Below the pieces are notes generated by a model. That model saw only the letters and a program-made list of their open reading frames with translations, was not told the DNA's origin and did not search any database. The translations under genes were made by a program, and so were the position numbers. From Escherichia coli (GTDB taxonomy: Bacteria > Pseudomonadota > Gammaproteobacteria > Enterobacterales > Enterobacteriaceae), in NCBI RefSeq assembly GCF_003334785.1, contig NZ_QOWV01000016.1: DNA of 64,000 nucleotides. One strand, given 5' to 3'. The first letter of the stretch is position 1. Every line of letters starts with the position of its first letter. This document shows, in pieces, positions 4,452-22,884 of this stretch.

Positions 4452-4490
4452 AAAAAGCACATTGTTTAATGAATACAATGTGCTTTTTAT
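4452..4490 (+). terminator. rho-independent terminator downstream of selAB
   Basis: Stem agcacattg (4456..4464) / caatgtgct (4476..4484) followed by TTTTT; lies in a very AT-rich 190-bp spacer. Confidence 0.7.
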
Positions 4491-4585
4491 TAGATTAATT
4501 TTGATAATCAATAATACTGATCATATTTTCGAATGAAAATCCTCAGTAAGCTGCCCGCCCTTTTTTACACTTTCAGGAGTGTGTT

Positions 4586-5737
4586 ATGGCAGCTTCAACG
4601 TTCTTTATTCCTTCTGTGAATGTCATCGGCGCTGATTCATTGACTGATGCAATGAATATGATGGCAGATTATGGATTTACCCGTACCTTAATTGTCACTG
4701 ACAATATGTTAACGAAATTAGGTATGGCGGGCGATGTGCAAAAAGCACTGGAAGAACGCAATATTTTTAGCGTTATTTATGATGGCACCCAACCTAACCC
4801 CACCACGGAAAACGTCGCCGCAGGTTTGAAATTACTTAAAGAGAATAATTGCGATAGCGTGATCTCCTTAGGCGGTGGTTCTCCACACGACTGCGCAAAA
4901 GGTATTGCGCTGGTGGCAGCCAATGGCGGCGATATTCGCGATTACGAAGGCGTTGACCGCTCTGCAAAACCGCAGCTGCCGATGATCGCCATCAATACCA
5001 CGGCGGGTACGGCCTCTGAAATGACCCGTTTCTGCATCATCACTGACGAAGCGCGTCATATCAAAATGGCGATTGTTGATAAACATGTCACTCCGCTGCT
5101 TTCTGTCAATGACTCCTCTCTGATGATTGGTATGCCGAAGTCACTGACCGCCGCAACGGGTATGGATGCCTTAACGCACGCTATCGAAGCATATGTTTCT
5201 ATTGCCGCCACGCCGATCACTGACGCTTGTGCACTGAAAGCCGTGACCATGATTGCCGAAAACCTGCCGTTAGCCGTTGAAGATGGCAGTAATGCGAAAG
5301 CGCGTGAAGCAATGGCTTATGCCCAGTTCCTCGCCGGTATGGCGTTCAATAATGCTTCTCTGGGTTATGTTCATGCGATGGCGCACCAGCTGGGCGGTTT
5401 CTACAACCTGCCACACGGTGTATGTAACGCCGTTTTGCTGCCGCACGTTCAGGTATTCAACAGCAAAGTCGCCGCTGCACGTCTGCGTGACTGTGCCGCT
5501 GCAATGGGCGTGAACGTGACAGGTAAAAACGACGCGGAAGGTGCTGAAGCCTGCATTAACGCCATCCGTGAACTGGCGAAGAAAGTGGATATCCCGGCAG
5601 GCCTACGCGACCTGAACGTGAAAGAAGAAGATTTCGCGGTATTGGCGACTAATGCCCTGAAAGATGCCTGTGGCTTTACTAACCCGATCCAGGCAACTCA
5701 CGAAGAAATTGTGGCGATTTATCGCGCAGCGATGTAA
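4586..5737 (+). CDS. yiaY: iron-containing (group III) alcohol dehydrogenase
   Basis: 383-aa ORF; SD aggag at 4571..4575; Fe-ADH family sequence recognised. Confidence 0.9.
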
Positions 5738-5901
5738 TCATCATTTCCACAACGGCTGGCAAATTGTCAGCCGCTTTTTCAACTATCTCTGTAACCCTTG
5801 CCCGTAAATTCGTGATAGCTGTCGTAAAGCTGTTACCGACTGGCGAAGATTTCGCCAGTCACGTCTACCCTTGTTATACCTCACACCGCAAGGAGACGAT
5901 C

Positions 5902-7440
5902 ATGACCAATAATCCCCCTTCAGCACAGATTAAGCCCGGCGAGTATGGTTTCCCCCTCAAGTTAAAAGCCCGCTATGACAACTTTATTGGCGGCGAATGG
6001 GTAGCCCCTGCCGACGGCGAGTATTACCAGAATCTGACGCCGGTGACCGGGCAGCTGCTGTGCGAAGTGGCGTCTTCGGGCAAACGAGACATCGATCTGG
6101 CGCTGGATGCTGCGCACAAAGTGAAAGATAAATGGGCGCACACCTCGGTGCAGGATCGTGCGGCGATTCTGTTTAAGATTGCCGATCGAATGGAACAAAA
6201 CCTCGAGCTGTTAGCGACAGCTGAAACCTGGGATAACGGCAAACCCATTCGCGAAACCAGTGCTGCGGATGTACCGCTGGCGATTGACCATTTCCGCTAT
6301 TTCGCCTCGTGTATTCGGGCGCAGGAAGGTGGGATCAGTGAAGTTGATAGCGAAACCGTGGCCTATCATTTCCATGAACCGTTAGGCGTGGTGGGGCAGA
6401 TTATCCCGTGGAACTTCCCGCTGCTGATGGCGAGCTGGAAAATGGCTCCCGCGCTGGCGGCGGGCAACTGTGTGGTGCTGAAACCCGCACGTCTTACCCC
6501 GCTTTCTGTACTGCTGCTAATGGAAATTGTCGGTGATTTACTGCCGCCGGGCGTGGTGAACGTGGTCAATGGCGCAGGTGGGGTAATTGGCGAATATCTG
6601 GCGACCTCGAAACGCATCGCCAAAGTGGCGTTTACCGGCTCAACGGAAGTGGGCCAACAAATTATGCAATACGCAACGCAAAACATTATTCCGGTGACGC
6701 TGGAGTTGGGCGGTAAGTCGCCAAATATCTTCTTTGCTGATGTGATGGATGAAGAAGATGCCTTTTTCGATAAAGCGCTGGAAGGCTTTGCACTGTTTGC
6801 CTTTAACCAGGGCGAAGTTTGCACCTGTCCGAGTCGTGCTTTAGTGCAGGAATCTATCTACGAACGCTTTATGGAACGCGCCATCCGCCGTGTCGAAAGC
6901 ATTCGTAGCGGTAACCCGCTCGACAGCGTGACGCAAATGGGCGCGCAGGTTTCTCACGGGCAACTGGAAACCATCCTCAACTACATTGATATCGGTAAAA
7001 AAGAGGGCGCTGACGTGCTCACAGGCGGGCGGCGCAAGCTGCTGGAAGGTGAACTGAAAGACGGCTACTACCTCGAACCGACGATTCTGTTTGGTCAGAA
7101 CAATATGCGGGTGTTCCAGGAGGAGATTTTTGGCCCGGTGCTGGCGGTGACCACCTTCAAAACGATGGAAGAAGCGCTGGAGCTGGCGAACGATACGCAA
7201 TATGGCCTGGGCGCGGGCGTCTGGAGCCGCAACGGTAATCTGGCCTATAAGATGGGGCGCGGCATACAGGCTGGGCGCGTGTGGACCAACTGTTATCACG
7301 CTTACCCGGCACATGCGGCGTTTGGTGGCTACAAACAATCAGGTATCGGTCGCGAAACCCACAAGATGATGCTGGAGCATTACCAGCAAACCAAGTGCCT
7401 GCTGGTGAGCTACTCGGATAAACCGTTGGGGCTGTTCTGA
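5902..7440 (+). CDS. aldB: NADP-dependent aldehyde dehydrogenase B
   Basis: Track ORF starts at 5764, but the recognised AldB N-terminus [17 protein letters not shown] begins at ATG 5902, preceded by SD aggag 5891..5895; 512 codons. Confidence 0.9.
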
Positions 7441-7471
7441 TATAAGAAGCTGGTCGCATTGGGTATTCATT

Positions 7472-7554
7472 GCCTGATGCGACGCTTACGCGTCTTATCA
7501 TGCCTACGGGAACCTGACCGTAGGCCGGATAAGGCGTACACGCCGCATCCGGCA
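7472..7554. repeat. REP/BIME-type palindromic units downstream of aldB
   Basis: gcctgatgcgacgc...gtcttatcatgcctac and gtaggccggataaggcgtacacgccgcatccggca: the characteristic GCC(G/T)GATGCG / CGCATCCGGCA REP consensus halves. Confidence 0.7.
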
Positions 7555-7658
7555 TAAACAAAGCGCACGTTGTTACAATTTACGTTTTAAACCTACGTGC
7601 GCAATAACCCAGACTACGCCAACAGAAGTACGTTTCTGGGGCGTGTTTTGTCAGGAGT

Positions 7659-7871
7659 TTAATCTCGCGTTTCGATGGTGAGCGGGCGAACCAGGCCGTA
7701 AATCACCATTGGTGATCCGAGGCCAATCAGCAATAAACGGTAGATAATTGAAGGTTTAATACGCTTAATCTGTACTGTGGATGTTTTACTGGAGTTATTC
7801 ATTAGTTTGGCCAATAGTTCCACTATTTCAATATGATAAACCTCGTCCTGTTGAAAAACCAGACAGCACAT
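7659..7871 (-). CDS. hypothetical small protein (70 aa; hydrophobic C-terminal half), unassigned
   Basis: ORF in track only; no convincing SD at either in-frame ATG; sits between aldB and yiaW where I recall no annotated gene. Confidence 0.25.
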   Translation of the reverse strand: MCCLVFQQDEVYHIEIVELLAKLMNNSSKTSTVQIKRIKPSIIYRLLLIGLGSPMVIYGLVRPLTIETRD

Positions 7872-7984
7872 TTAAGAAAGTATATAAAAAACAATATGTC
7901 GTTATATAAATAAGGAAATTGCACTGCATCATGGCATTTCATAATATGCGTTAATTGTTCTTTTTTATATTCTTTGAGGGAAAT

Positions 7985-8308
7985 ATGTTCCTGGACTATT
8001 TTGCACTGGGAGTGCTTATTTTTGTATTTCTGGTGATCTTCTATGGGATCATTATTTTACATGATATTCCCTACCTGATTGCCAAAAAACGTAATCATCC
8101 TCATGCCGACGCCATTCATGTTGCTGGTTGGGTGAGTCTTTTTACGTTACATGTTATCTGGCCGTTTTTGTGGATTTGGGCCACGCTTTACCGCCCGGAG
8201 CGGGGATGGGGAATGCAAAGCCATGATTCATCCGTTATGCAACTGCAACAGCGCATTGCCGGGCTGGAGAAACAGCTCGCCGACATCAAATCCTCTTCTG
8301 CCGAGTAA
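7985..8308 (+). CDS. yiaW: small inner-membrane protein (DUF3302 family)
   Basis: 107-codon frame [21 protein letters not shown]... from ATG 7985 inside the 117-aa track ORF; followed 5 bp later by yiaV. Confidence 0.85.
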
Positions 8309-8313
8309 TACTT

Positions 8314-9450
8314 ATGGATTTACTGATTATTTTGACCTATGTGGCTTTTGCATGGGCAATGTTTAAGATCTTCAAAATTCCCGTAAATAAATGGACCATT
8401 CCCACAGCGGCCCTGGGTGGAATATTTATTGTCAGCGGTCTAATTCTGTTAATGAACTATAACCATCCGTATACCTTTAAAGCGCAAAAAGCGGTTATTT
8501 CTATTCCTGTTGTCCCACAGGTGACTGGTGTGGTGATTGAAGTGACGGATAAGAAAAATACGCTGATTAAAAAAGGTGAGGTGCTATTTCGACTGGACCC
8601 GACGCGTTATCAGGCGCGGGTGGATCGGCTGATGGCGGATATCGTTACCGCAGAACATAAACAGCGGGCGTTGGGCGCAGAGTTAGATGAGATGGCGGCG
8701 AATACTCAGCAGGCAAAGGCCACGCGGGATAAATTCGCTAAAGAGTATCAGCGTTACGCACGTGGCAGCCAGGCGAAAGTAAACCCGTTTTCAGAACGCG
8801 ATATCGATGTGGCGCGGCAAAATTATCTGGCGCAGGAAGCCTCCGTGAAGTCATCGGCGGCGGAACAAAAACAGATCCAGAGCCAGCTGGATAGCCTGGT
8901 GTTGGGTGAACATTCTCAAATCGCCAGCCTGAAAGCACAGCTCGCGGAAGCAAAATATAACCTTGAGCAGACGATAGTGCGTGCGCCGAGCGATGGTTAT
9001 GTGACCCAGGTACTGATTCGTCCGGGTACCTATGCCGCGTCGCTGCCGCTACGTCCGGTGATGGTGTTTATACCCGATCAGAAACGACAAATCGTGGCGC
9101 AGTTCCGTCAGAACTCCTTGCTGCGACTGGCTCCTGGCGACGATGCGGAAGTGGTGTTTAATGCTCTGCCAGGTAAGGTATTCAGCGGTAAGCTGGCAGC
9201 CATTAGTCCAGCCGTTCCCGGCGGAGCTTATCAGTCGACCGGCACCTTACAGACGTTAAACACAGCGCCGGGTTCAGATGGCGTTATCGCGACCATTGAA
9301 CTGGATGAGCACACTGATTTGAGCGCTTTACCAGACGGTATTTACGCCCAGGTGGCGGTTTACTCTGATCATTTCAGCCATGTCTCGGTGATGCGCAAAG
9401 TGCTATTACGCATGACCAGCTGGGTGCATTACCTTTATCTCGATCATTAA
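8314..9450 (+). CDS. yiaV: HlyD-family membrane fusion / periplasmic adaptor protein
   Basis: 378-aa ORF; N-terminal TM segment then long coiled-coil ([37 protein letters not shown]...). Confidence 0.9.
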
Positions 9451-10421
9451 TCTTCGCTTTCCGCCGCTTGTTCAGGCCGCAGTTGCTGCGACTGAGCAAG
9501 CTGGTGGCGAATTTCACGCAGCATTTCATCCAGCACATACTGGACCCGCCAGGGCTGGTATTCCCGTTTACGGAAGATAGCCACCAGATCCAGCCACCAT
9601 TCATAGGGTTGCTGAAAGCAGGGCACCAGCGTGCCGTCTTGCAGGTCGCTCTGCACACTTTTGTCTGGCGCAAACACAATCCCCAGGTGATTTCGTGCCA
9701 GCTCCAGCGCAGATTGCGTGTTGTCGCAAACGTAATTTCCCTTCACGCGATAATCCCGCACCTCTTTACTCCCGGCGACGTTGAAGCGCCAGATATTCGC
9801 GTCGTCGATCATCATCGAGTCGATCAAAATACAGGAGTGATGTTCGAGTTCGTCAGGACGGCTAATGGGATGTTTCTCAAGATAGCGCTGGCTGGCATAA
9901 GCGGTTACGGCATATTGGGTAATAAAACTGGCAACCAGCGATTCATCTTTTGGTGGAGCGTAGCTGATTAAAACATCACAATCATCAGGAAATTCGACGC
10001 CTTCATAAAAGGCATTACGCTCAAGATTGCAGGTTTTTAGCGGTAAGGTGATATCACCGATATCTTTAATTTTATCGATTACATGTTTGGATAAATAGGT
10101 AATTATGCCGGTTGGGGCGTAGATGGTGACCCGACCACGTTTCTCATGCTTATAATCTGCAATAAAATTATTAAGTTGCTCGTTTCTGTCCAGCATGTCG
10201 TTGATGTACGGTAACAGCGCGGTGCCAAAAGGTGTGAGCATCAGCTGCCGGGTGGTTCGGTCAAAGACTTTTAAACCCACTTTTGATTCAAAATCAGCAA
10301 GATATTTGCTGACGTTGGCCTGTGCGATGCCAAGTACAGTCGCGGCATGGCTGATATTTTCACTGGCAGCGATTACCGAGATAATTTTTAACTCCCGGTA
10401 CTTAAGTTGTAATTTTGTCAT
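9447..10421 (-). CDS. yiaU: LysR-family transcriptional regulator
   Basis: 324-aa ORF with N-terminal HTH ([27 protein letters not shown]); 3' end overlaps yiaV 3' end by 4 bp (convergent). Confidence 0.9.
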
Positions 10422-10544
10422 CGCAACAGCCCAATTATATATAATTTTATATATTACTATATAAATATGAATCTTGCACCGGAGAAATTGTAAGCATTAT
10501 TATGCCGACTCTTTTTTATCTTATTTTAAAATGGAATACCGGAC

Positions 10545-11285
10545 ATGTTAATTAATCGCAATATTGTGGCGTTATTTGCGTTGCCTTTTATGGCAAGCGC
10601 AACTGCTTCTGAATTATCCATTGGTGCTGGTGCGGCTTATAATGAATCGCCTTATCGCGGTTATAATGAAAATACGAAGGCAATTCCGCTGATTAGTTAT
10701 GAAGGTGATACTTTTTATGTTCGTCAGACCACGTTAGGTTTTATTCTGTCGCAAAGTGAAAAAAATGAACTTAGCCTGACCGCATCCTGGATGCCGCTGG
10801 AATTTGACCCTACCGATAATGACGATTATGCCATGCAACAGCTTGATAAGCGTGATAGTACGGCTATGGCGGGGGTTGCCTGGTATCACCACGAGCGTTG
10901 GGGAACCGTGAAAGCCTCTGCAGCTGCGGACGTTCTGGATAACAGCAACGGCTGGGTGGGGGAGCTATCGGTATTCCACAAAATGCAGATAGGTCGTCTG
11001 TCGCTGACACCTGCGCTGGGCGTTCTCTATTATGACGAGAATTTCAGTGACTATTACTATGGCATTTCAGAGAGTGAGTCCCGTCGTAGCGGTCTGGCAA
11101 GTTATTCCGCGCAGGATGCCTGGGTGCCCTATGTCAGCCTGACGGCAAAATACCCGATAGGAGAGCACGTCGTATTGATGGCGAGCGCAGGATACAGCGA
11201 GCTGCCGGAAGAGATTACCGACAGCCCGATGATTGATCGTAATGAGAGTTTTACCTTTGTCACCGGGGTGAGCTGGCGTTTTTAA
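10545..11285 (+). CDS. yiaT: MipA/OmpV-family outer-membrane protein
   Basis: 246-aa ORF with signal peptide MLINRNIVALFALPFMASATA and terminal ...GVSWRF beta-barrel motif. Confidence 0.9.
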   Translation: MLINRNIVALFALPFMASATASELSIGAGAAYNESPYRGYNENTKAIPLISYEGDTFYVRQTTLGFILSQSEKNELSLTASWMPLEFDPTDNDDYAMQQLDKRDSTAMAGVAWYHHERWGTVKASAAADVLDNSNGWVGELSVFHKMQIGRLSLTPALGVLYYDENFSDYYYGISESESRRSGLASYSAQDAWVPYVSLTAKYPIGEHVVLMASAGYSELPEEITDSPMIDRNESFTFVTGVSWRF

Positions 11286-11631
11286 TTCACCGGTGGATGT
11301 CGGTGCGGCTGGTGCTCCGTCGTAATGCCACAAAGGTTGTTGCTCTGGATTGCTCTGTTCATACCGGGAACCTGGCGTCTGAATCAGGATCTTATGGCTG
11401 AACAATCCCTTGCCTTCAAATGTCGTAAATGGCGCATCGGCGGGCAGCAACAGGTTATGCAGTGACTCGACGTTGTCGGCCTGCTCCATGCAATACGGTT
11501 TAATGACGTTGGCTATTTCCGGCAGATTTTTCAGAAACATACTGGTTTAACGCCAGCAGCGTGGAAGCGGCGTTACAGCAAGGAACATATCAATTCGTAG
11601 TGCCGGGGCGATGAAGCCCCGGCGTGAGGGA

Positions 11632-12327
11632 TTACTGCCCGTAATAGGCATTGGCCCCATGCTTACGCAGGTAGTGCTTATCCAGCAGTTCGTTTTGCAT
11701 CGCAGGGAGCTGCGGCGCAAGCTGGCGCGAGAATAGACCCATATAGGCGCATTCTTCGAGTACTACGGCGTTATGCACGGCATCGGCGGCGTTTTTACCC
11801 CATGCGAACGGGCCGTGAGAATGCACCAGCACCGCCGGGATTTGTGCCGGACTCCTGCCACGTTCTTCGAAGGTTTCAATGATCACTTCGCCGGTCTGAT
11901 ATTCATATTCGCCGTTAATCTCCTCTGCGGTCATCTGTCGCGTGCAGGGGATGGCACCGTAAAAATAATCAGCGTGGGTGGTGCCCCAGGCGGGGAGATC
12001 CAGCCCGGCCTGTGACCAGATGGTGGCGTGGCGCGAGTGGGTATGCACAATACCGCCAATTTCGGCATAGCGACGGTAGAGCGCCAGATGCGTTGGTGTA
12101 TCGGAAGAGGGTTTTTTGCTGCCTTCCACCACCTTACCGCTGGCTATCTCAACCACCACCATATCGTCGGCGGTCATCACGTCGTACTCGACGCCGGAAG
12201 GTTTGATTACCATCCATTGCCGCGTTTCGTCTACCGCGCTGACATTGCCCCAGGTGAACGTCACCAGATGGTGAGCGGGAAGCGCCAGATTCGCCGCCAG
12301 CACGTCGGCTTTCAGTTGCTCTAACAT
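11632..12327 (-). CDS. sgbE: L-ribulose-5-phosphate 4-epimerase
   Basis: 231-aa ORF of the AraD/UlaF class II aldolase family, recognised. Confidence 0.9.
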
Positions 12328-13181
12328 ATAAATCCAGCCTCCTGCATACGCGCTTCAATCCAACGCCGCGCCTGAATAATCTCCAGCACCGGCTCTTTGG
12401 CTTTTTCGGTCCACATCTCAATCAGGAAAGAACCGCGATAGTTCAGTTTATGCAGCGTTTTGAAGATGCCAACGAAATCGACGCAGCCTTCGCCAAACGG
12501 CACGTCGCGGAACTGTCCGGGACTTTGCCCGGTGACTGGCTGGGTGTCTTTCAGGTGGATCGCGGCGATACGGTCAATGCCCAGTTTCAGTTCGGCGGGA
12601 ACATCATTGCCCCAGGCGCTGAGGTTGCCGACGTCCGGGTAGACGGTGAACCACGGTGAGGCGAGCATCTCGTCCCATTTTTTCCATTTGCTGATGGAGT
12701 TCATAAACGCGGTATCCATAATCTCCACCGCCAGCATTACTTGTGATGCCGCCGCCTGTTCGACTGCCCACGCCAGCCCTTCAGCAAAACGTTGCCGGGT
12801 GCCTTCGTCGTGGTCTTCGTAATAGACGTCATAACCTGCCAGCTGGATGGTGCGAATGCCGAGATCGCGCGCCAGGCGAATCGCTTTACTCATGATTTCC
12901 CGCGCCCGTTCGCGCACTGCCTCGTCACGGCTACCAAAGGGAAAGCGACGATGTGCGGACAGGCACATCGACGGGATCCCAACACCTGTTTCGATCATCG
13001 CGGCAACCAGCGAAGTCCTTTGTGCGGCGCTCCAGTCAAGACGTGAGAGCCGTTCGTCGGTTTCATCCACCGACATTTCGACAAAATCAAAACCGCAGCT
13101 TTTTGCCAGCACCAGCCGCTCCGGCCAGGAGAGATCTTTCGCCAGCGCTTTTTCATAAATCCCTAACGGATGATTACGCAC
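12321..13181 (-). CDS. sgbU: L-xylulose/L-ribulose-5-phosphate 3-epimerase
   Basis: Track ORF extends to 13271, but a GTG at 13181..13179 preceded by ggggagg gives the 286-codon product (M)[14 protein letters not shown]...; stop overlaps sgbE start. Confidence 0.8.
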
Positions 13182-13836
13182 GCGCACCTCCCCAGATAGC
13201 GTCGATTTGCGCATGGAAATCGCCAGCCACTTGCGCCGGATTTGCCGCGCCTGCCAGTGCCCGCCCGGCAATAAACGCTTTCACGCGGATATCTTTAAAC
13301 AGCGGCAGGTCAGCAGGGGTAATCCCGCCAGTAATGGAAAGCTCAAGGCCGATATCTGAAAGCGCCTTCATGCGTGCCAGATCGGCTTCGCCCCACTGTT
13401 GCCCGCTGGCCTGTGCATCACGACCGCGATGATAAATGGCCTGCCGCACGCCAATACGATGCCAGTCGCGGGCGTCGTCCAGCGTCCAGTTACCGAACAG
13501 CTCTATCTGAATTTCACCCCCGCAGCGTTGTGCCATTGCGTGGCCTTTTTCTACCGTCGCGAGCGGCGCGGCGCAGATGATGGTCATCCAGTTAGCGCCT
13601 GCGCCAAACGCCTGTTGCGCGAGCGTTTCACCAGCGTCGGCGACCTTCCAGTCAGCAACGATGATTTTGTCCGGGCACTGTTCGCGCAAGGCTTTCACCG
13701 CGCCAAGCCCTTCGTTTAAACAGAGAATGGTGCCCGCTTCGACGATATCGACGCTGTCTTTTAACAGCGTCACGTCGCGCTGCGCGGCTTCAAGTGATGA
13801 GTGGTCGAGGGCCAGTTGCAGAAGTGGTCGGCTCAT
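13174..13836 (-). CDS. sgbH: 3-keto-L-gulonate-6-phosphate decarboxylase
   Basis: 220-aa [24 protein letters not shown]...; SD aaggag (complement of 13845..13850) 8 nt before the ATG. Confidence 0.9.
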
Positions 13837-15328
13837 AATGTGTGCTCCTTAATGCGGGCGTGAAAGCCCTGAAGTGCGGCAATGAGATGCTGATAACGTT
13901 GATATTTTTTTGGTAAAGCTGATGGGCGGTCATATCTGGCAGCAGGGTGCGCACCGGGTGTCGCAAGTCACGTTGGGCTTCGCTGAAGTTGTGATAAACC
14001 CCGGTGCCGACGCGGGCGGCAAGGGCCGCACCAAAGCAGCCGGTTTCTTCCACCTGCGGCAGCTCGATACGCAGACCGCTGACGTCCGCCAGCATTTGCA
14101 TCCAGACATCGGAGTGCGCCGGGCCGCCAGTGACGCGTAGGGTGTGAACATCAGTAAAACGTTCGCGCATTCGGTTGAGGTGGGTCATATGGCTGAACAC
14201 CACCCCTTCATAGATGGCCTGCAACAGGTGCGCGCGGGTGTGAATGGCCTGCATCCCGTAGAAACCACTGGTCATCTCGAGTCCGGCGTTGCTGCCGTAC
14301 AGGAACGGCAGGAAAAAGAGATCGCCCCCAGCCTTCGGCAAGCTGGCAACGGCCTGATTGATCTCATCAAACGAGATTTCTCCCCACTGTGCGGTAAACC
14401 ATTCGAGGTTGCCGGAAGAGGTAGGGCTGGCTTCGTGAACGATAAATTCACCATCGTTAACGTAGCGACCATAGACATACGGATGCGCTTCACCGTCACG
14501 TAAACCGCGGGTTATGCCGCTGGTCACCGCCCAGGTCCCCATCACCGCATTGAGGGTAAATTCGTCTTCGATCCCGGCGCAGAGTGCGGTGGAAACCACA
14601 TCAAACAGGCCGCCAACAACGGGCGTACCCGCTTTCAGACCGGTCAGGGCGGCTGTCTGAGCGGTGATCTCCCCGCAGATTTCGGCAGATCCGACAACAG
14701 GCGGCAGGGCGTGATTGATTTCAGCGATCCCCAGCCAGTCGGTGAGGCACGGGTCATATTCCCCAAGACTCATGTTGTAGAGGTTGGACTCGGAAATATT
14801 GCTCTCTTCACAGCCTTTGACGCCAGTTAAACACCAGCGCAGGTAGTCGTGCGTCATCATCACGCAGCCAATTTGCGCGTAGCGTTCTGGTTCGTGCTCT
14901 TTCAGCCAGCGTAACAGCGACACCGGATGCCCGGTCCACAAGGTTTGTCGGGTCAGCGGGTAGAGTTTTTCCGGGATGCCATCTTCCTGCCAGCGACGAA
15001 CGATTTCCATCGCCCGGCGGTCCGAGGACAAAATAGCATTCCCGAGCGGTTTGTCGTTTTTATCCAGCAAAAACAAGCCCTTTCCCTGTGCGGAGATGCC
15101 GATACCGACAATTTGTTCCCCGCTAACACCAGAATGAGTAAGCAGGGCGCGAATGACAGCCATGCAGCATTGCCACAGTTCTGCCATATCGCGCTCTGCC
15201 CAGCCTGGCTGCGGGCTTAATGCGCACAGCGGCAGGCGCTGCACGCCTGCCTCCCGGCCTTCGCGGTCATACAGCCCGGCTTTCAGCCAGCTACCGCCAC
15301 AATCTAACCCCAGCCAGTATTGCGTCAT
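13790..15328 (-). CDS. lyxK: L-xylulose kinase; 3' end apparently frameshifted (512-codon ORF as it stands, see findings)
   Basis: MTQYWLGLDCGGSWLKAGLYD... FGGY-family sugar kinase; the ORF passes an A7 run (plus-strand T7 at 13905..13911) and ends 46 nt inside sgbH. Confidence 0.85.
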   Translation of the reverse strand: MTQYWLGLDCGGSWLKAGLYDREGREAGVQRLPLCALSPQPGWAERDMAELWQCCMAVIRALLTHSGVSGEQIVGIGISAQGKGLFLLDKNDKPLGNAILSSDRRAMEIVRRWQEDGIPEKLYPLTRQTLWTGHPVSLLRWLKEHEPERYAQIGCVMMTHDYLRWCLTGVKGCEESNISESNLYNMSLGEYDPCLTDWLGIAEINHALPPVVGSAEICGEITAQTAALTGLKAGTPVVGGLFDVVSTALCAGIEDEFTLNAVMGTWAVTSGITRGLRDGEAHPYVYGRYVNDGEFIVHEASPTSSGNLEWFTAQWGEISFDEINQAVASLPKAGGDLFFLPFLYGSNAGLEMTSGFYGMQAIHTRAHLLQAIYEGVVFSHMTHLNRMRERFTDVHTLRVTGGPAHSDVWMQMLADVSGLRIELPQVEETGCFGAALAARVGTGVYHNFSEAQRDLRHPVRTLLPDMTAHQLYQKNINVISISLPHFRAFTPALRSTHYEPTTSATGPRPLIT

Positions 15329-15331
15329 GGT

Positions 15332-16318
15332 TTATTGCACCTCATCCACGGCTTTCAGCAGATCAGCTCCCTGCGGCACATCTTTAACAAACATGTCGCG
15401 AACCTGATTCCCCAGTGCGTCGCTAAAGGCTTTGCGGTCGAGATCGGTGATGACTTCCACGCCCGCTTCTTTCATGCCGTCGATGATTTTTTGCTGATCT
15501 TCAGCAACCAGTTTGCGCTGATAGTTACCCGCTTCTTGTGCAGATGAAACTAGCGCCTGCTGGAACTCCGGACTTAAGCCATCAAACTTCGCTTTGTTGA
15601 TCACCACCAGAAGCGGGGAATAGGCGTGGTGCGTCAGAGAAAGGAACTTCTGCACTTCGAAAAATTTTGCTGACCAGACGACGTTGATCGGGTGTTCCTG
15701 AGCGTCGATAGTGCGGGTTTCCAGCCCGGTATAGACTTCGGCAAACGGCATCGGGATCGGGTTAGCGCCAAAGACTTTGAATGCGGCGATATTCATCGGG
15801 CTATTGTTGGTGCGGATTTTCAGCCCTTTCAGGTCGGCGGGGGTTTTAACCGGTGCGCGCGAGTTGGTGACATCGCGCCAGCCGTTTTCCCAGTAGGCCA
15901 GTACTTTCAGTCCTTTACCTTCAAGTGAGGCTTTCAGATCATCACCGACTTTGCCGTCGAGCGTTTTATGCGCGTGAGCGGTATCGCGGAACAGGAAAGG
16001 GACATCAAGCAAGTTCATCACTGGTGATAACCCGGCAAAGTTATTCGAGCCGGACATTTCCATATCGATGGTGCCGCCACGTACGCCGCTGATCATCGCC
16101 TGCGCGTTACCGAGAGTGCTGTCCGGGAACAGTTTTAATTTCAGCTCGCCTTTGGTTCTCTCCTGCAATAAATCATTGAATTTTTTCGCCGCAATATGTT
16201 GCGAGTCGGTTTGTGATGTTTCATAACCGAAACGTAAAGATTGTGCCGCCAGAGAAGATGTGCTGAATGCAGCCAGGCCAGCAATGAATAATGCGTAGGT
16301 TACAGAGCGTAATTTCAT
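15332..16318 (-). CDS. yiaO: TRAP transporter periplasmic substrate-binding protein (2,3-diketo-L-gulonate)
   Basis: 328-aa ORF with signal peptide, recognised as YiaO (DctP family). Confidence 0.9.
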   Translation of the reverse strand: MKLRSVTYALFIAGLAAFSTSSLAAQSLRFGYETSQTDSQHIAAKKFNDLLQERTKGELKLKLFPDSTLGNAQAMISGVRGGTIDMEMSGSNNFAGLSPVMNLLDVPFLFRDTAHAHKTLDGKVGDDLKASLEGKGLKVLAYWENGWRDVTNSRAPVKTPADLKGLKIRTNNSPMNIAAFKVFGANPIPMPFAEVYTGLETRTIDAQEHPINVVWSAKFFEVQKFLSLTHHAYSPLLVVINKAKFDGLSPEFQQALVSSAQEAGNYQRKLVAEDQQKIIDGMKEAGVEVITDLDRKAFSDALGNQVRDMFVKDVPQGADLLKAVDEVQ

Positions 16319-16330
16319 AATATTTTCCTT

Positions 16331-17608
16331 TTAATTAATCCATTTCAAAGGGAGGATGATGAGATCGGGAATAAAAACAAATACGACTAATAATGAATAT
16401 AAAACCAGGATGTAAGGGAAAACGCCTCTGACTGCATCATCGAATTTGAGTTTTGCCACCCCTGAAATAACGTTAAGTACATTACCGATAGGCGGTGTAA
16501 TTAAGCCGATTGAGCAGTTAATGATAAACATGACACCGAAATAAATCGGATCGATTCCTGCCTCTTTAACTAAAGGCATTAATACCGGGGTAAGAATTAA
16601 TACCGTCGGCGTTAAATCCATGACCATGCCGACAATCAGGATAGCCACCATAATGACGATAAACAGCAGACGCGGTGAATCGACCAACGGTTGCAGTAAA
16701 TCAGAAACCATCATCGGCAGTTCAGCAATGGTAATCAGCCAGGCGGAAACTTGTGCCGAGGCCACCAGAAACATAACCACTGAGGTGGTTTTCGCCGCGC
16801 CAATGAGTACATGCCAAAGTGTGGCGAAGGTCATTTCACGGTAAATAACTGTGGCGACAAACAGCGCATAGAAAGCAGCAACGGCCCCGGCTTCGGTAGG
16901 GGTAAACAGACCGGAGCGAAACCCGCCAATAATGATGACTGGAAGAAACAGCGCCCAGATACCGGAGACAAAAGAGTGCCAGATTTCCTGCATCGTTGCT
17001 TTTTGCTGGCGGGGTAAATTAAGGCGACTGGCCTGCCACCACCAGGTAAGCATCAGCGTTGCGCCCATCATCATGCCAGGGGCAATGCCCGCCATAAACA
17101 GCTTACTGATGGATAATCCGCTGGAAACGCCGAAGATAATAAACGGAATGGAAGGGGGAATAATTGGCGCGATAATGCCGCCAGAGGCAATCAGCCCCGC
17201 CGCCCGGTTGACCGGATAGTTGGCGCTGCGCATCATCGGCACCAGTAGAGCGGCAACGGCGGCGGTATCCGCAACGGCAGAACCAGAAAGGCTCGCCATA
17301 ATCATAGCTGCCAGCACGCCGACGTAGCCCAGCCCGCCTGGTTTATGCCCCACCAGTTTCATCGGCAGGTCAACAATGCGTTTTGACAAGCCGCCCGCAT
17401 TCATGATTTCACCCGCCAGCACAAAGAACGGAATCGCCAGCAGGGAGAAGCTATCGGCTCCGTTCACCAGCGTTTGTGCCATGATCTGGACATCAAACAT
17501 GTCCAGCCAGAACATTAACGCCGCCCCGCACAACAACAGTGCCCAGGCAATAGGCAAACCGATAGCAATACCACCCAACAGACAGCCCAGAAAAATCAGC
17601 ACAGCCAT
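16331..17608 (-). CDS. yiaN: TRAP transporter large permease (DctM family)
   Basis: 425-aa polytopic membrane ORF immediately downstream of yiaM. Confidence 0.9.
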   Translation of the reverse strand: MAVLIFLGCLLGGIAIGLPIAWALLLCGAALMFWLDMFDVQIMAQTLVNGADSFSLLAIPFFVLAGEIMNAGGLSKRIVDLPMKLVGHKPGGLGYVGVLAAMIMASLSGSAVADTAAVAALLVPMMRSANYPVNRAAGLIASGGIIAPIIPPSIPFIIFGVSSGLSISKLFMAGIAPGMMMGATLMLTWWWQASRLNLPRQQKATMQEIWHSFVSGIWALFLPVIIIGGFRSGLFTPTEAGAVAAFYALFVATVIYREMTFATLWHVLIGAAKTTSVVMFLVASAQVSAWLITIAELPMMVSDLLQPLVDSPRLLFIVIMVAILIVGMVMDLTPTVLILTPVLMPLVKEAGIDPIYFGVMFIINCSIGLITPPIGNVLNVISGVAKLKFDDAVRGVFPYILVLYSLLVVFVFIPDLIILPLKWIN

Positions 17609-17610
17609 GA

Positions 17611-18084
17611 TTAAGCTCCTTGCGGTGGCGACGTTAGAGAATTGCTACGCGTGATGAGTTGATATAAATGACGCAGTTCAAAGAATGCGATAACGAGGCT
17701 GGTGGGCAGACAAGCGGCATACATCAGGCCGATGGGTAAACCGAGGATCGGTGAATAATCGCTCCAGTCCTGAATTGTTTTTAGCGTTGCGCCCCAGGCC
17801 AGTGCGCCACAAATAAATAAGATTAAGGAATGGGTAACCAGAGCGACTCGTCGCTGCCATGCGGGGGAGAGTTTCTCCACCAGAAAGGTGACCTGAACGT
17901 GGGCGTTATCCATAAAAGCTACAATCGCGCCAATAAACGTTAACCAGACAAATAAATAACGTGACAATTCATCAACAGATAAAATGCTTGTCTGAAAACC
18001 ATATCTTAAAATAATGTTTATAAATACAATACAGGAAAGTACGGCGAGATTAATCGCCAGTATTGCTTCGAGTATTTTTTTCAT
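17611..18084 (-). CDS. yiaM: TRAP transporter small permease (DctQ family)
   Basis: 157-aa hydrophobic ORF; 2-bp gap to yiaN. Confidence 0.9.
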
Positions 18085-18201
18085 AGCTATTCCTTGAGGC
18101 TATGTCTGTCATAATTCAAGTCGCATGTGCAGCAACCTGAATTATTAATATAGTTAGAGCAATAACATTACCCAGGCGTTCTGGCGTAGACGATTATTCG
18201 A

Positions 18202-18672
<471 letters not shown>

Positions 18673-18680
18673 TTATCTCC

Positions 18681-19679
18681 TCATAACGCCTGGATTTTGG
18701 CCCACACGCTGTCATCAACAGTGATGCCGTTACGGCGGTTTTCGGCCAGCAGGGTAGTAAATTCATGGCCGGGTAAGCGAATGGCCTGATTTTCGTCAGC
18801 ACGCTCGGCACTAGTAACGTAATCCATGATGCGTTGCAGCTTGGCATCGCGGGTGGGACCGTCGATAAGCTTGTCCACTTCAATGGCAATAAAAATTTGT
18901 GAAATGCCGTATTCGTCGCTGTTGTCCTGGGTGACTTCGGCAACGGATGCGCCGTCGGAAAGGAGAGTAGCGATCATATCCAGCACAATCGACATGCCAG
19001 AACCTTTCCAGTAGCCCATCGGCAAAATGCGGCGATTCTTCTCGATAACGCCAGGTTCTTTGGTCAAATTGCCCTCATCATCAAAGCCACCATCGACCGG
19101 GAGCTGACGACCTGCCAGACGGTTAACTTCTAACATGCCGTAAGAGAACATCGACATCGACATATCGACCATGGTGATCGGCGTGGAAGGAATGGCGACG
19201 ATCAGCGGGTTAGTGCCGATGCGACACTCTTTTGCGCCCCACGGCGGCATTACGGCGATGGAGTTGGTCCAGCAAATGCCAATATAGCCTTTTTCCGCCG
19301 CCTGCCAGCCGTAGCTGCCGCCGCGCATCCAGTGGTTGGCATTACGTAGTGCCACCAGACCAATACCGTGATCGGCAGCCAGTTCAATGGCGCGATCCAT
19401 CATCTTTTTCGCTGTCAGGTTACCGATCGAACGCTGGGCGTCCCACTGTTCAATTGCGCCGAGGCTGGTTATACGTTTGGGTTGGGCATCAGGAATGATA
19501 TCGCCGTTTTCCAGTTGTTGAATGAAACGAGGGAAACGATTAACGCCGTGAGAATAAACGCCGGATTCGGTGGTGCGGGCGAACATCTCTGCACAGGCGT
19601 CAGCCGTTTCGCTGTCAACGCCGCGTGAAATTAAGACCCGATTAAAGGCTGCTTTTAACTGCTCAAATGTCACTTTCAT
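18681..19679 (-). CDS. yiaK: 2,3-diketo-L-gulonate reductase
   Basis: 332-aa [52 protein letters not shown]...; first gene of the operon. Confidence 0.9.
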
Positions 19680-19879
19680 CCCAGGCTTCCTTGTTTTTTT
19701 GATCGCTTTTTTGGCTTAAAATTTCAATATGCGAAACTTGATTTCAAATATATCGATCACTTTTTAACAAAGCAATCTGATTGATGAATTTCAAAAGACA
19801 TAAAAATCAATTGGTTATAAATTATCTGTCGAGATCGTGAACTACGGCACACTTTGCGCTACCATCAGGACGCGACAAA
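19680..19879. promoter_or_regulatory. divergent yiaK / yiaJ control region
   Basis: 200-bp AT-rich spacer between divergently oriented yiaK (-) and yiaJ (+); expected to hold the operon promoter and YiaJ operator (established for this operon; sites not mapped here). Confidence 0.5.
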
Positions 19880-20728
19880 ATGGGGAAAGAAGTGATGGGA
19901 AAAAAAGAGAACGAGATGGCGCAGGAAAAAGAGCGTCCAGCCGGAAGCCAGAGTCTGTTTCGCGGGTTGATGCTGATTGAGATTTTGAGCAACTATCCAA
20001 ACGGTTGTCCGTTGGCGCATCTTTCGGAGCTGGCTGGTTTAAATAAGAGTACCGTCCATCGCTTATTGCAGGGATTACAGTCCTGCGGCTATGTGACCAC
20101 CGCGCCTGCCGCAGGGAGTTATCGCCTGACCACCAAATTTATTGCCGTCGGGCAGAAGGTGCTGTCTTCGCTGAATATCATTCATATCGCCGCTCCGCAT
20201 CTTGAGGCACTGAACATCGCCACTGGTGAAACCATTAACTTCTCCAGCCGCGAAGACGATCACGCTATTTTGATTTATAAGCTGGAACCCACAACCGGGA
20301 TGCTGCGAACCCGTGCCTATATTGGCCAGCATATGCCGCTCTACTGTTCCGCAATGGGCAAGATCTACATGGCGTTTGGTCACCCGGACTACGTGAAGTC
20401 ATACTGGGAAAGCCATCAGCATGAGATCCAGCCGTTAACCCGCAATACCATTACCGAGCTGCCCGCGATGTTCGACGAACTGGCGCACATTCGTGAAAGC
20501 GGAGCGGCGATGGACAGAGAAGAAAACGAACTCGGCGTCTCCTGTATTGCTGTTCCGGTGTTTGATATTCATGGGCGGGTGCCGTACGCCGTGTCGATTT
20601 CGCTTTCGACATCACGTCTGAAACAGGTGGGAGAGAAAAATCTCCTGAAACCACTGCGTGAAACCGCGCAGGCTATTTCTAATGAACTGGGATTTACTGT
20701 CAGGGATGACCTGGGCGCGATCACATAA
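19880..20728 (+). CDS. yiaJ: IclR-family transcriptional repressor of the yiaK-sgbE operon
   Basis: 282-aa ORF with N-terminal HTH and C-terminal IclR effector domain, recognised. Confidence 0.9.
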   Translation: MGKEVMGKKENEMAQEKERPAGSQSLFRGLMLIEILSNYPNGCPLAHLSELAGLNKSTVHRLLQGLQSCGYVTTAPAAGSYRLTTKFIAVGQKVLSSLNIIHIAAPHLEALNIATGETINFSSREDDHAILIYKLEPTTGMLRTRAYIGQHMPLYCSAMGKIYMAFGHPDYVKSYWESHQHEIQPLTRNTITELPAMFDELAHIRESGAAMDREENELGVSCIAVPVFDIHGRVPYAVSISLSTSRLKQVGEKNLLKPLRETAQAISNELGFTVRDDLGAIT

Positions 20729-20829
20729 CGCTTTGGACAAGTGCCAAAACTTTAACATTTCCTTCGTTGGATCAAAGCAGTAGGGACGCGCTCTCTGGCA
20801 CTCTGCTGTTTTAGTGCAAAGGAGTGATC

Positions 20830-21303
20830 ATGAACCGGTTTATTATTGCGGATGCGACGAAATGTATCGGTTGCCGTACCTGTGAAGTGGCTTGCGCAGT
20901 GTCGCATCATGAGAATCAGGATTGCGCTGCGTTGTCACCAGACGAGTTTATTTCCCGTATTCGTGTCATTAAAGACCACTGCTGGACCACGGCAGTAGCC
21001 TGTCATCAGTGTGAAGATGCACCGTGCGCGAATGTCTGCCCTGTTGACGCGATAAGCCGCGAACATGGGCATATTTTCGTTGAACAAACACGTTGCATTG
21101 GCTGTAAAAGCTGTATGCTGGCTTGCCCGTTTGGTGCGATGGAGGTCGTTTCTTCGCGCAAAAAGGCGAGGGCGATTAAGTGCGATCTGTGCTGGCATCG
21201 GGAGACGGGACCGGCCTGTGTTGAAGCCTGCCCGACAAAGGCGTTGCAGTGCATGGATGTCGAGAAAGTGCAGCGGCATCGGCTACGGCAGCAGCCTGTT
21301 TGA
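20830..21303 (+). CDS. ysaA: 4Fe-4S ferredoxin-type protein
   Basis: Multiple CxxCxxCxxxCP cluster motifs; ATG 20830 with SD ggag 20821..20824 preferred over the track's GTG at 20824. Confidence 0.85.
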   Translation: MNRFIIADATKCIGCRTCEVACAVSHHENQDCAALSPDEFISRIRVIKDHCWTTAVACHQCEDAPCANVCPVDAISREHGHIFVEQTRCIGCKSCMLACPFGAMEVVSSRKKARAIKCDLCWHRETGPACVEACPTKALQCMDVEKVQRHRLRQQPV

Positions 21304-21350
21304 AACGTTTTCCGGCGTTTCTCAACGCCGGAACAGTGCGCTTTGTTTAT

Positions 21351-21447
21351 GCCAGATGCGGCGTAAACGCCTTATCCGGCCTACAAATTCTTCCAAATTC
21401 AATATATTGCAGAAATCATGTAGGCCTGATAAGCGTAGCGCATCAGG
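21351..21447. repeat. REP/BIME palindromic units between ysaA and avtA
   Basis: gccagatgcggcgtaaacgccttatccggcctac ... gtaggcctgataagcgtagcgcatcaggc. Confidence 0.7.
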
Positions 21448-21453
21448 CAATTT

Positions 21454-22707
21454 TTAGTGACTTTCAGCCCAGGCTCTTTCTATCTCTTCCGCCAGAATCT
21501 TCACCCCCGCCTCAATTTTCTCCGGCTCTGGTACGTAGTTCATGCGCATACATTGATGCGTATGCGGCCACGGTTTATCCAGCCCTGGGAAGAAGTTGTG
21601 CCCCGGCACCATCAGCACGCCGCGTGCTTTCAGGCGCTGATAGAGCTGCTCGGTCGTAATGGGCAAATCCTTAAACCATAGCCAGAGGAAAATGGCTCCT
21701 TCCGGTTTATGAATCAGGCAGCGATTTTCCGGTAAATAGCGGCGAATGATGGCGATAGTTTCCTGAACACGCTGGTAGTAAAACGGTTTGATGACTGTTT
21801 CAGACAGGCGCAGCAGATCGTTACGCTTAATCATTTCACACATCATCGCCGGACCAATACCGCCAGGTGCCAGGCTGATAATGCCGTTCATATTGGTGAT
21901 GGCGGTGATGATTTTTTCATTGGCGATGATAATGCCGCAGCGGGAGCCAGGTAGACCCAGCTTGGAAAGACTCATGCACAGCACGATATTCGGATTCCAT
22001 AGCGGGCGCGCTTCACTGAAGATGATACCCGGGAACGGGACGCCATAAGCGTTATCAATCACCAGCGGAATGCCGTGTTGATTCGCCAGCGCGTCAAGCT
22101 TCAGCAACTCTTCGTCAGTAATCACATTGCCTGTTGGATTCGTCGGCCGGGAGACGCAAATCATCCCGGTTTCTTCGCCAATATGCAGATGCTCAAAATC
22201 GACGTGGTATTTAAACTGGCCTTCCGGCAGCAGTTCAATATTCGGACGCGCAGAGACAAACAGATCTTCTTCCAGTCCGGCGTCAGCATAGCCAATGTAT
22301 TCCGGTGCAAGCGGGAACAGCACTTTTTTGACCCGACCATCGGCACGGCGTCCGGCAAACAGGTTAAATAAGTAGAAAAACGCGCTCTGGCTGCCGTTTG
22401 TTAGTGCAATATTCTGTGGTTCGATATCCCAACCCAACTTCTCGCGCAGCATTCCGGCAAGCAGTGTGAGTAGCTCCGTTTTCCCCTGTGGACCGTCGTA
22501 GTTACACAGTGCATCAGTCGCTTTGCCACTTTCCAGCATGTCGGTCAGTAGCGTCTGGAAGTAGTCCTGCATTTCCGGGATCTGCGCCGGATTACCGCCG
22601 CCGAGCATAATCGCGCCAGGCGTGCGTAAACCGTCGTTCAGATCTTCCATCAACAGCGTAATGCCGGAGTGGCGGGTAAATTTGTCACCAAAAAGGGAGA
22701 ATGTCAT
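21454..22707 (-). CDS. avtA: valine-pyruvate aminotransferase
   Basis: Track ORF is 452 aa, but the recognised AvtA N-terminus MTFSLFGDKFTRHSGITLLMEDLNDGL starts at 22707 (417 codons). Confidence 0.9.
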   Translation of the reverse strand: MTFSLFGDKFTRHSGITLLMEDLNDGLRTPGAIMLGGGNPAQIPEMQDYFQTLLTDMLESGKATDALCNYDGPQGKTELLTLLAGMLREKLGWDIEPQNIALTNGSQSAFFYLFNLFAGRRADGRVKKVLFPLAPEYIGYADAGLEEDLFVSARPNIELLPEGQFKYHVDFEHLHIGEETGMICVSRPTNPTGNVITDEELLKLDALANQHGIPLVIDNAYGVPFPGIIFSEARPLWNPNIVLCMSLSKLGLPGSRCGIIIANEKIITAITNMNGIISLAPGGIGPAMMCEMIKRNDLLRLSETVIKPFYYQRVQETIAIIRRYLPENRCLIHKPEGAIFLWLWFKDLPITTEQLYQRLKARGVLMVPGHNFFPGLDKPWPHTHQCMRMNYVPEPEKIEAGVKILAEEIERAWAESH

Positions 22708-22884
22708 AGCGGGATATCTGTCGAACTCTGTAGCAAGGAAGGTAACAATAACGCTACATTTGCTGGGGTGCAAATCGGTCTGTTGAAGAGTGAGCGGTGC
22801 TTTATCCTGCAACGCTGATTAGGGCTGACATTTTATCCTGGTTGGCGGCTTCCCGAGGTACTGACGAACGGGAAGCCGGAAAAG

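Follow-up and report, generated by a model that had tools for sequence, protein, structure and literature searches.

LyxK (YiaP; WP_000196054.1; LYXK_ECOLI) of Escherichia coli K-12 is encoded in the yiaKLMNO-lyxK-sgbHUE operon under YiaJ (PMC6237786). The yiaK-S genes are repressed by YiaJ (PMC6237786) and contribute to the use of L-ascorbate (PMC6237786, PMC6958661), so that the view of the operon as cryptic and rarely selected, taken in the first-pass annotation, is dated. The same operon context is found in the DNA analysed here, a window of 64,000 nucleotides from E. coli, and residues 1-474 of its LyxK are identical to those of the K-12 protein. Compared with K-12, however, the window has one A less, 38 different residues stand in place of 475-498 and the stop codon has moved off the sgbH ATG.

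Slippage at A/T runs is a described source of enterobacterial pseudogenes, and a table of loci with AT runs of eight or more nucleotides includes sefD of Salmonella as well as lyxK, which is listed as a pseudogene of S. Gallinarum (PMC8538453). The lyxK allele of the window resembles this class in that an A/T 8-mer differs by 1 nt, A7 standing in place of the A8 of intact alleles, and the change would inactivate a non-essential gene in a sub-lineage. It differs in that its run arose recently within a single E. coli haplotype, and although Salmonella lyxK is the orthologous gene it belongs to another species and its change is listed as a substitution. Programmed -1 ribosomal frameshifting of the dnaX type shares with the window an in-phase slippery A_AAA_AAN sequence at which a -1 shift gives the full-length product, but the window has neither an upstream SD-like element nor a downstream hairpin nor conservation of the site, and is not classed there. 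The contingency loci of Neisseria, Haemophilus and Campylobacter are reminiscent of lyxK as there too the reading frame depends on the length of a mononucleotide tract. In contrast, the short lyxK tract is located at the 3' end and does not vary among nested relatives, and it is not a member of that group. A further comparison is offered by the LyxK-SgbH fusion protein (P0017, 718 aa, from a 90%-identity cluster of 373 sequences), in which the ATGA junction is likewise lost through a frameshift at the 3' end of lyxK. Unlike in the window, the shift in the fusion occurred on a Gln474 haplotype within the last few codons, enters the sgbH frame and leaves the conserved C-terminal helix in place. 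An initial assignment of the 718-aa proteins to an A9 allele proved wrong, since A9 on the haplotype of the window encodes a truncated LyxK of 493 aa and the fusions are other frameshifts on another haplotype.

In the window lyxK occupies positions 13790..15328 of the minus strand and comprises 512 codons and a TGA stop, coding for an FGGY-family L-xylulose/3-keto-L-gulonate kinase with a frameshifted C-terminus. The minus strand reads ...CAG CTT TAC CAA AAA AAT ATC AAC... through seven A at 13911..13905 (plus-strand T7 at 13905..13911), and alignment to W3110 places the 1-nt deletion in this run, which is A8 in intact K-12-type lyxK. The tract spans codons 473-475 of 498, codon 474 being AAA (Lys) at 13907..13909. 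From codon 475 onwards the frame is lost, and an out-of-frame tail of 38 unrelated residues (codons 475-512, 13793..13906) substitutes for the native 24-residue end. The shift to a 512-aa product with its last 24 residues replaced had been noticed before and is plainly visible in the open reading frame. The earlier proposal that one extra A would give a 498-codon gene overlapping sgbH by ATGA also holds: insertion of one A in silico yields a LyxK of 498 aa with precisely the C-terminal sequence proposed earlier, and the restored gene has the same length, 1497 nt, and the same junction as the annotated lyxK of K-12 W3110.

The shifted frame terminates at TGA 13792..13790, 43 nt beyond the normal stop and within sgbH (13174..13836, minus strand, 220 aa), whose protein accession, WP_000089481.1, is the same in A7 and A8 genomes. 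In the A8 allele of W3110 the lyxK stop overlaps the start of sgbH (ulaD) by 4 nt. In the window the corresponding ATGA is still present at 13833..13836 with the sgbH ATG at 13836..13834, but the lyxK frame reads through it and covers the first 15 sgbH codons (13790..13836). This overlap measures 47 nt, one base more than the 46 nt originally given. The AAGGAG predicted from the sequence as the Shine-Dalgarno element of sgbH lies at 13845..13850 on the minus strand, 8 nt upstream of the ATG and inside the lyxK coding sequence. Ribosomes translating A7 lyxK would thus cross the binding site and start codon of sgbH rather than terminate at the ATGA, and SgbH translation is likely to be affected secondarily, if probably only mildly. 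It had also been claimed that the same coupled junction recurs at other boundaries of the operon. All of these are indeed compact, with overlaps of 8 nt between sgbH and sgbU (GTGCGTAA) and of 7 nt between sgbU and sgbE (ATGTTAG) and a gap of 3 nt between yiaO and lyxK, but the ATGA arrangement is confined to lyxK/sgbH.

Allele frequencies were obtained from exact matches of 81-82 nt with identical flanks among 5426 complete E. coli genomes. On this haplotype, which is carried by 1411 genomes, A8 is found in 1349, A7 in 61 and A9 in one, the flanking 81-82 nt of A7 and A8 being otherwise the same. The A8 majority encodes the 498-aa protein, which bears out the earlier statement that the lyxK of the window lacks one A relative to the reference frame. 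A7 accounts for about 1% of complete genomes. Among public assemblies the exact 512-aa product occurs on at least 1000 contigs and in about 6300 index blocks, the intact K-12-type protein in 46050 index blocks; most contigs with the 512-aa product are 10-200 kb long and are taken to be short-read drafts. The carriers come from human, chicken, duck, pig, dog, crow, cucumber, lettuce, seawater and wastewater sources in Korea, the USA, Mexico, Japan, Ecuador and China. The 512-aa protein is on record under the name L-xylulokinase, and PGAP labels lyxK as 'frameshifted' in each of the ten A7 genomes that were inspected. No description of this lyxK allele of E. coli turned up in literature searches, but with public annotation flagging it as a pseudogene it is already catalogued, and it is an ordinary lineage marker rather than a discovery. 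According to the first-pass annotation, its reading would be refuted by reference lyxK alleles that share the A7 run and encode 512 aa. Such alleles do exist, but they are a minority, derived and annotated as frameshifted, and the reading is thereby confirmed.

The A8 run is itself derived, judging from a comparison of alleles. The run is interrupted (AACAAAAA, Gln474) in five genomes with divergent alleles, including ST131 and O111:H8; codon 474 is CAA (Gln) in the ST131, O111:H8, 23AR0303, 510016 and HKUOPY1 alleles, and across genera residue 474 is variable (K/Q/R/H). The K-12-like (phylogroup-A-type) allele had first undergone a C-to-A substitution (Gln474Lys), which merged AA and AAAAA, turned AACAAAAA into AAAAAAAA and made a slippery A8 found on this allele only. 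The deletion from A8 to A7, very probably by replication slippage, then shifted the frame at codon 475 and put the 38 unrelated residues in place of the conserved C-terminal helix. The absence of A7 from other phylogroups was considered as a control for sequencing error and dropped, since the interrupted AACAAAAA can neither slip nor be miscalled in the same way.

The A7 deletion is very probably genuine, vertically inherited and the product of replication slippage, and it is likely to impair LyxK. Its descent is documented by two nested markers, a synonymous SNP in sgbE at position 11971, which is A in the window and G elsewhere on the haplotype, and a SNP at 20160 that produces YiaJ A94V. 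The former is present in nine of the 61 A7 genomes and in none of the 1350 non-A7 genomes of the haplotype (Fisher 3e-13, the genomes not being independent), and marks a sub-lineage within the A7 carriers in which all nine members are A7. The latter (20160T) is nested within these nine, being shared among the genomes examined only by the window and JKHS016, and three more SNPs are private to the window. Because 11971A is confined to A7 genomes and A94V is nested within those nine, A7 must be older than either SNP. The variant is therefore inherited within a sub-lineage while the intact state remains in the majority. This is hard to reconcile with a homopolymer miscall in an organism that is truly A8, the second of the two options offered originally. 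An undercall of eight to seven is a classic long-read error, and no complete genome in the collection is identical to the window, the best match showing 3 differences over 25 kb. Yet the relatives that share its rare SNPs are A7 throughout, namely JKHS016 with both 11971A and 20160T, and LR-64-2, FDAARGOS_1248 and six others with 11971A, a base seen in no non-A7 genome of the haplotype. The 512-aa product is also frequent in the apparent short-read drafts. A platform artefact is unlikely as well, as both alleles are found inside single sequencing projects: Z1323CEC holds A7 (0003/7/8/10-13/17/18) and A8 (0016), and in three further projects LR-64-2 is A7 and LR-64-1 and LR-50 A8, NCTC9087 and NCTC9100 are A7 and NCTC10973 and NCTC9041 A8, and FDAARGOS_1248 is A7 and FDAARGOS_1250 A8. 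A miscall is accordingly very unlikely, and of the two options the real 1-bp deletion is retained on the strength of the 61 genomes that share it, the thousands of assemblies and the nested SNPs. Whether the 61 carriers descend from one ancestral event is a separate matter, as a hotspot could have produced A7 from A8 by several independent slippages. Eight-base runs are prone to slip, an A9 genome exists and no linked SNP is common to all A7 genomes; moreover PCN061 carries A7 on a mosaic background, in a block of about 6 kb with divergent DNA on either side, which could reflect recombination or a second event. Over about 34 kb compared in seven A7 and four A8 genomes no SNP separates the two alleles, a result explained by how little the region varies in this lineage. 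The ratio of A7 to A9 is 61:1, the later SNPs are nested in A7 and no A8 revertant is found among the nine 11971A genomes, all of which indicates that tract changes are rare relative to SNP accumulation and makes recurrent slippage somewhat unlikely. One event or very few would suffice for all 61 carriers, so that a single origin is suggested rather than proven. Two other potential markers were set aside. The rhsA/yibA/yibG arrangement is too mosaic, LR-64-2 sharing rearrangements with ML35 and, separately, with the A8 strain CP8-3, and the span of a 25-kb alignment (25000 against 25001) is an unreliable proxy for A7 and A8, as NCTC9100, STECUZB006 and Z217-2 span 25001 and yet are A7.

The shift leaves the recognisable kinase domains intact. 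A Pfam scan of intact LyxK returns FGGY_N (PF00370) at residues 4-250 (E 6e-96) and FGGY_C (PF02782) at 259-440 (E 8e-21); both precede the shift, and both families are likewise recorded for the 512-aa product. What is missing from the window is the C-terminal helix of the FGGY kinases (approximately residues 466-497), owing to the replacement of residues 475-498. In 13 intact orthologues, spanning the four other genera Citrobacter, Salmonella, Klebsiella and Pseudocitrobacter, 16 of the 24 lost residues are invariant and display helical periodicity, a rate equal to that of the whole protein (328/498). PDB homologues of LyxK align through residue 495, the lost segment matching the terminal helix of solved FGGY kinases, and in the actin-like ATPase fold this helix packs back onto domain I. 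Matches to XylB-type models end at model position 474 of 481 in the mutant and at 480 of 481 in the intact protein, with a loss of about 10 bits, although all fall below the curated cut-offs; NCBIfam holds no lyxK-specific model, and all matches there are under the cut-offs of neighbouring kinase families. AlphaFold2 models from an 18-sequence alignment reached a mean pLDDT of 54.5 for the intact and 53.7 for the mutant protein, which is too poor for helix packing or a fold search. In these low-confidence models (pLDDT of about 54) residues 466-497 form one helix in the intact protein, and residues 466-476 a helix followed by coil in the mutant.

Since conservation of the lost segment matches that of the whole protein, function has likely been lost, and conservation together with the PGAP label suggests that the 512-aa LyxK is most likely inactive or strongly impaired on L-xylulose and 3-keto-L-gulonate. 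It could instead be a functional C-terminal variant, in which case A7 would not be a pseudogene, given that the change spares 474 of 498 residues and both Pfam domains, that A7 persisted long enough to gain nested SNPs and spread widely, and that altered C-termini such as that of the 718-aa fusion occur in other lineages. Such persistence is equally expected of neutral loss in a repressed operon, however, and the invariant residues of the helical repeat, in a segment that aligns with the terminal helix of solved kinases, render a functional variant improbable. Full-length LyxK might still be made from A7 if ribosomes shifted by -1 on A_AAA_AAT or if RNA polymerase slipped on the run, as the heptamer is an in-phase X_XXY_YYZ (CA[A AAA AAT]) at which a -1 shift restores the native frame, and in E. 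coli such runs are known to slip spontaneously at a low level. Against this, the RNA downstream has no more structure than shuffled controls (13935..13820, -14 kcal/mol, z = +0.64), the 20 nt upstream show no SD-like stimulator, no Rfam family matches, and the arrangement is recent and derived, all other alleles and orthologues being in one frame; recoding is the least credible of the alternatives and extremely unlikely. A phase-variable contingency switch between ON (A8) and OFF (A7) would fit a length polymorphism at a mononucleotide run within a gene. But the tract lies at codon 474 of 498, away from the 5' coding region and promoter where whole-gene switches are placed, and frequent reversible switching is at odds with close relatives that are stable (A7 in 9/9 of the nested sub-lineage), with A9 in one of 1411 genomes, and with the many K-12 laboratory derivatives among the 1349 A8 genomes, all of which are A8. 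The run is moreover missing in other phylogroups, and phase switching is as implausible as the miscall; neither programmed recoding nor phase variation is indicated for the lyxK tract. A combination of these ideas, in which Gln474Lys turned the lyxK end into a reversible leaky switch, with A7 giving traces of full-length kinase, A8 being regained under selection on L-lyxose or aerobic ascorbate and the LyxK:SgbH ratio retuned, is highly speculative and scarcely more probable.

The preferred reading thus remains that of an inherited slippage frameshift that impairs LyxK. The locus as a whole is missing from 573 of the 5426 complete E. coli genomes, about a tenth, and is deleted in lineages 2 and 3 of Shigella sonnei (PMC12795559). 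The cell would tolerate A7 because yiaK-S is mostly repressed and absent from about a tenth of genomes and because of an overlap in function with the ula system, and the allele is probably a neutral or nearly neutral lineage marker. Its importance beyond bookkeeping is very little. A7 stably marks a sub-lineage of K-12-like (phylogroup-A-type) E. coli, and its proper annotation is a frameshifted lyxK, not a 512-aa "L-xylulokinase". It is also a small example of how a point substitution may make a homopolymer in which slippage later causes a frameshift. Strains with A7 are predicted to be without the kinase step of YiaK-S, which acts on L-lyxose/L-xylulose and on 3-keto-L-gulonate from the aerobic breakdown of ascorbate, and this predicted loss may be relevant to metabolic models or phenotype arrays.

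lyxK is a 512-codon ORF on the minus strand of the window that starts at 15328, stops with a TGA at 13792..13790 and passes through a run of seven A's at 13911..13905, read as ...CAG CTT TAC CAA AAA AAT ATC AAC... (minus strand; this run length is called A7, and longer runs A8 and A9). Adding one A in silico yields a 498-aa LyxK, the TGA of which lies within the ATGA (13836..13833, minus strand) made up of the sgbH ATG and the next A, and the restored gene agrees with that annotated in K-12 W3110, which is 1497 nt long and overlaps sgbH/ulaD by 4 nt. The first-pass annotation was accurate in its description of the frame, both products and the ATGA coupling. Its remark that the same junction recurs at other boundaries of the operon holds for compactness but not for identity, as the overlap is 8 nt at sgbH/sgbU and 7 nt at sgbU/sgbE, and 3 nt lie between yiaO and lyxK.

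Searching 5426 complete E. coli genomes with a 401-nt probe located lyxK in 4853 of them. The best-ranked alignments cover 401 nt with 100% identity. Of 39 full-length matches in a spread sample, 38 cover 402 nt and so exceed the window by one base. Run lengths were counted in the 5426 genomes with 81-83-nt probes, at which length at least 99% identity is reached by an exact match alone, giving 61 genomes with A7, 1349 with A8 and one with A9; the last, strain ES2 (NZ_CM184352.1), is the sole complete genome with this run length, either real or miscalled, which on the K-12-like haplotype gives a truncated 493-aa product in silico. PGAP annotates lyxK as 'frameshifted' in all ten A7 genomes opened (FORC 064, ML35, PCN061, O157:H16 98-3133, RM10410, LR-64-2, H3, FDAARGOS_1248, JKHS016 and E423). 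W3110, CP8-3, NCTC10973 and LR-64-1, which are A8, are annotated with the intact protein WP_000196054.1. The exact 512-aa protein is already public under the name L-xylulokinase, with a UniRef entry, and occurs on at least 1000 contigs; its 6300 index blocks (46050 for the intact K-12-type protein) lie mostly on contigs of 10-200 kb, which we take to be short-read drafts. No paper describing the A7 lyxK allele of E. coli was found in a literature search; the allele is already catalogued, since both RefSeq annotation and UniRef record the A7 form.

The short run had been proposed to be either a real 1-bp deletion or a homopolymer sequencing error. Over a stretch of about 34 kb, A7 and A8 genomes belong to one haplotype and differ by private singletons only, so that none of the SNPs is diagnostic of A7 as a group. 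The change 11971A, synonymous in sgbE, is found in 11 genomes of which nine are A7, while the other two, 510016 and HKUOPY1, carry a haplotype only 96.9% identical with an interrupted run. On the K-12-like haplotype 11971A thus occurs in 9/61 A7 and 0/1350 non-A7 genomes (Fisher 3e-13, the genomes not being independent). Among these nine, 20160T is common only to the window and JKHS016, and the window has three further private changes. Later SNPs nested inside A7 imply that the deletion predates them and was stably inherited, and this nesting is the decisive argument for a real deletion. The A7 in the window is what its genealogy leads one to expect. A miscall is further spoken against by the presence of both A7 and A8 inside single sequencing projects (the Z1323 series, LR series, NCTC and FDAARGOS), which argues against a platform artefact.

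Recoding was also considered, A_AAA_AAT being an in-phase slippery heptamer on which a -1 shift would return lyxK to its native frame. However, the RNA downstream folds no more stably than shuffled sequences do (z = +0.64), no SD-like element is seen upstream of the heptamer, Rfam has zero matches in 11000..21000, and the heptamer arrangement is a recent derived state. Phase variation is contradicted by the 3' position of the tract in the gene and by its stability among close relatives. The A7 to A9 ratio of 61:1 and the zero revertants in the nested sub-lineage show that the tract seldom changes.

The A8 tract of K-12-type lyxK is itself a derived state. ST131, O111:H8, 23AR0303, 510016 and HKUOPY1 read CAA CAA AAA TAC (Gln-Gln-Lys-Tyr; AACAAAAA) with an interrupted run where the K-12-like allele reads CAA AAA AAA TAT, codon 474 (13907..13909, minus strand) being CAA (Gln474) in other phylogroups, so that a single C-to-A substitution created a slippage-prone homopolymer, on which the frameshift arose later. 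Residue 474 is K, Q, R or H among genera and free to vary, which makes Gln474Lys a harmless change that fused two short runs into A8. The frameshift is found solely on this Gln474Lys/A8 background; because the run is interrupted in other alleles, their lack of A7 is uninformative on error rates. In PCN061 the A7 lies in a block of about 6 kb identical to the common haplotype, with divergent DNA flanking it (213 differences from the window over 34 kb), which fits either recombination or a second event, and the 61 carriers may descend from one event or more. The PCN061 genome is mosaic, the block corresponding to about 9610..15796 within the compared window positions 1..34100. Its yiaN is interrupted by an internal stop and its yiaY and yibA are frameshifted, perhaps through additional decay of the operon, through the lower quality of an older assembly, or through the two combined.

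Both Pfam domains of LyxK, FGGY_N (4-250) and FGGY_C (259-440), lie upstream of the shift. Of the 24 lost positions, 16 (K475, Y476, Y479, Q480, L482, I483, A485-G488 and H490-E495, in a helical repeat) are invariant among 13 intact sequences including Citrobacter, Salmonella, Klebsiella and Pseudocitrobacter orthologues, the same share as in the whole protein (328/498), and such conservation argues that the segment is not a dispensable tail. Solved FGGY kinases (3ifr and several glycerol kinases) can be aligned through residue 495, and with XylB-type family models the match of the mutant stops short of the model's end and scores about 10 bits less. As part of an actin-like ATPase fold, this terminal helix would be expected to pack against domain I; the AlphaFold models of intact and mutant LyxK were both too poor to show it. 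The 512-aa LyxK is judged to be probably inactive or unstable.

The adjacent sgbH (13836..13174, minus strand, 220 aa) has an AAGGAG Shine-Dalgarno 8 nt upstream of its ATG on the same strand. With A8, ribosomes would finish lyxK on the ATGA at the sgbH start; with the A7 of the window they would read through the Shine-Dalgarno and ATG of sgbH and terminate 43 nt further on, out of frame with sgbH. As sgbH has its own strong AAGGAG, its translation is expected to be altered moderately at most.

Two 718-aa LyxK-SgbH fusions, P0017 (on the Gln474 haplotype, with 373 member sequences in its 90%-identity cluster; the frame shifts within the last few lyxK codons and joins a nearly complete kinase to the decarboxylase) and P0019 (a single sequence shifted near residue 444), are independent frameshifts at the same lyxK end in other E. 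coli lineages. Some A7 assemblies (L015, L016, L017) have yiaO split into 172 + 154 aa and an sgbU of 263 aa or 83 + 215 aa; either decay that followed the loss of lyxK or errors of assembly could account for these split genes. The C-to-T change at 20160 in yiaJ (19880..20728, plus strand) gives A94V in the operon repressor YiaJ, shared with the window among the genomes examined by JKHS016 alone, the YiaJ of which has a separate accession (WP_032183092.1). The changes at 4260 (selB A570V), 10043 (yiaU S127P) and 16411 (yiaN V400I), all three nonsynonymous transitions, occur in none of the genomes compared with the window, and no exact match to 2000..26999 exists in the complete-genome collection. 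At about 11400..11600, between sgbE and yiaT, K-12-like genomes retain only a 102-nt piece of an AraC-family regulator gene and a hypothetical fragment of 189 nt, each annotated as a partial pseudogene; the intact AraC-family regulator and MFS transporter in this gap of 510016 and HKUOPY1 mark the K-12-like state as a deletion scar. The rhsA-yibA-yibG region beside yibF, upstream of window position 1, was unusable as a lineage marker, since even genomes that are nearly identical elsewhere (L006-L013) are highly mosaic there, with variants that include yibA loss, deletions at the 5' end of rhsA and an inserted IS1.

The first description of lyxK presented it as a cryptic gene for an L-xylulose kinase (Sanchez 1994, as cited in PMC6958661) and the operon was later tied to aerobic ascorbate metabolism (Campos 2007, as cited in PMC6958661). 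YiaJ represses the yiaK-S operon, the enzymes of which parallel the ula system, and yiaJ loss leads to faster L-ascorbate use (PMC6237786). The locus was removed in an engineered reduced genome (PMC10652928), is lacking in lineages 2 and 3 of Shigella sonnei (PMC12795559) and is missing from 573 of the 5426 complete genomes; together with repression by YiaJ, this makes its decay unsurprising. It is well described that one-nucleotide changes at AT 8-mers can turn enterobacterial genes into pseudogenes, the orthologous lyxK of Salmonella Gallinarum being one case (PMC8538453), and the comparisons support the A7 of lyxK in the window as a real deletion of this kind.
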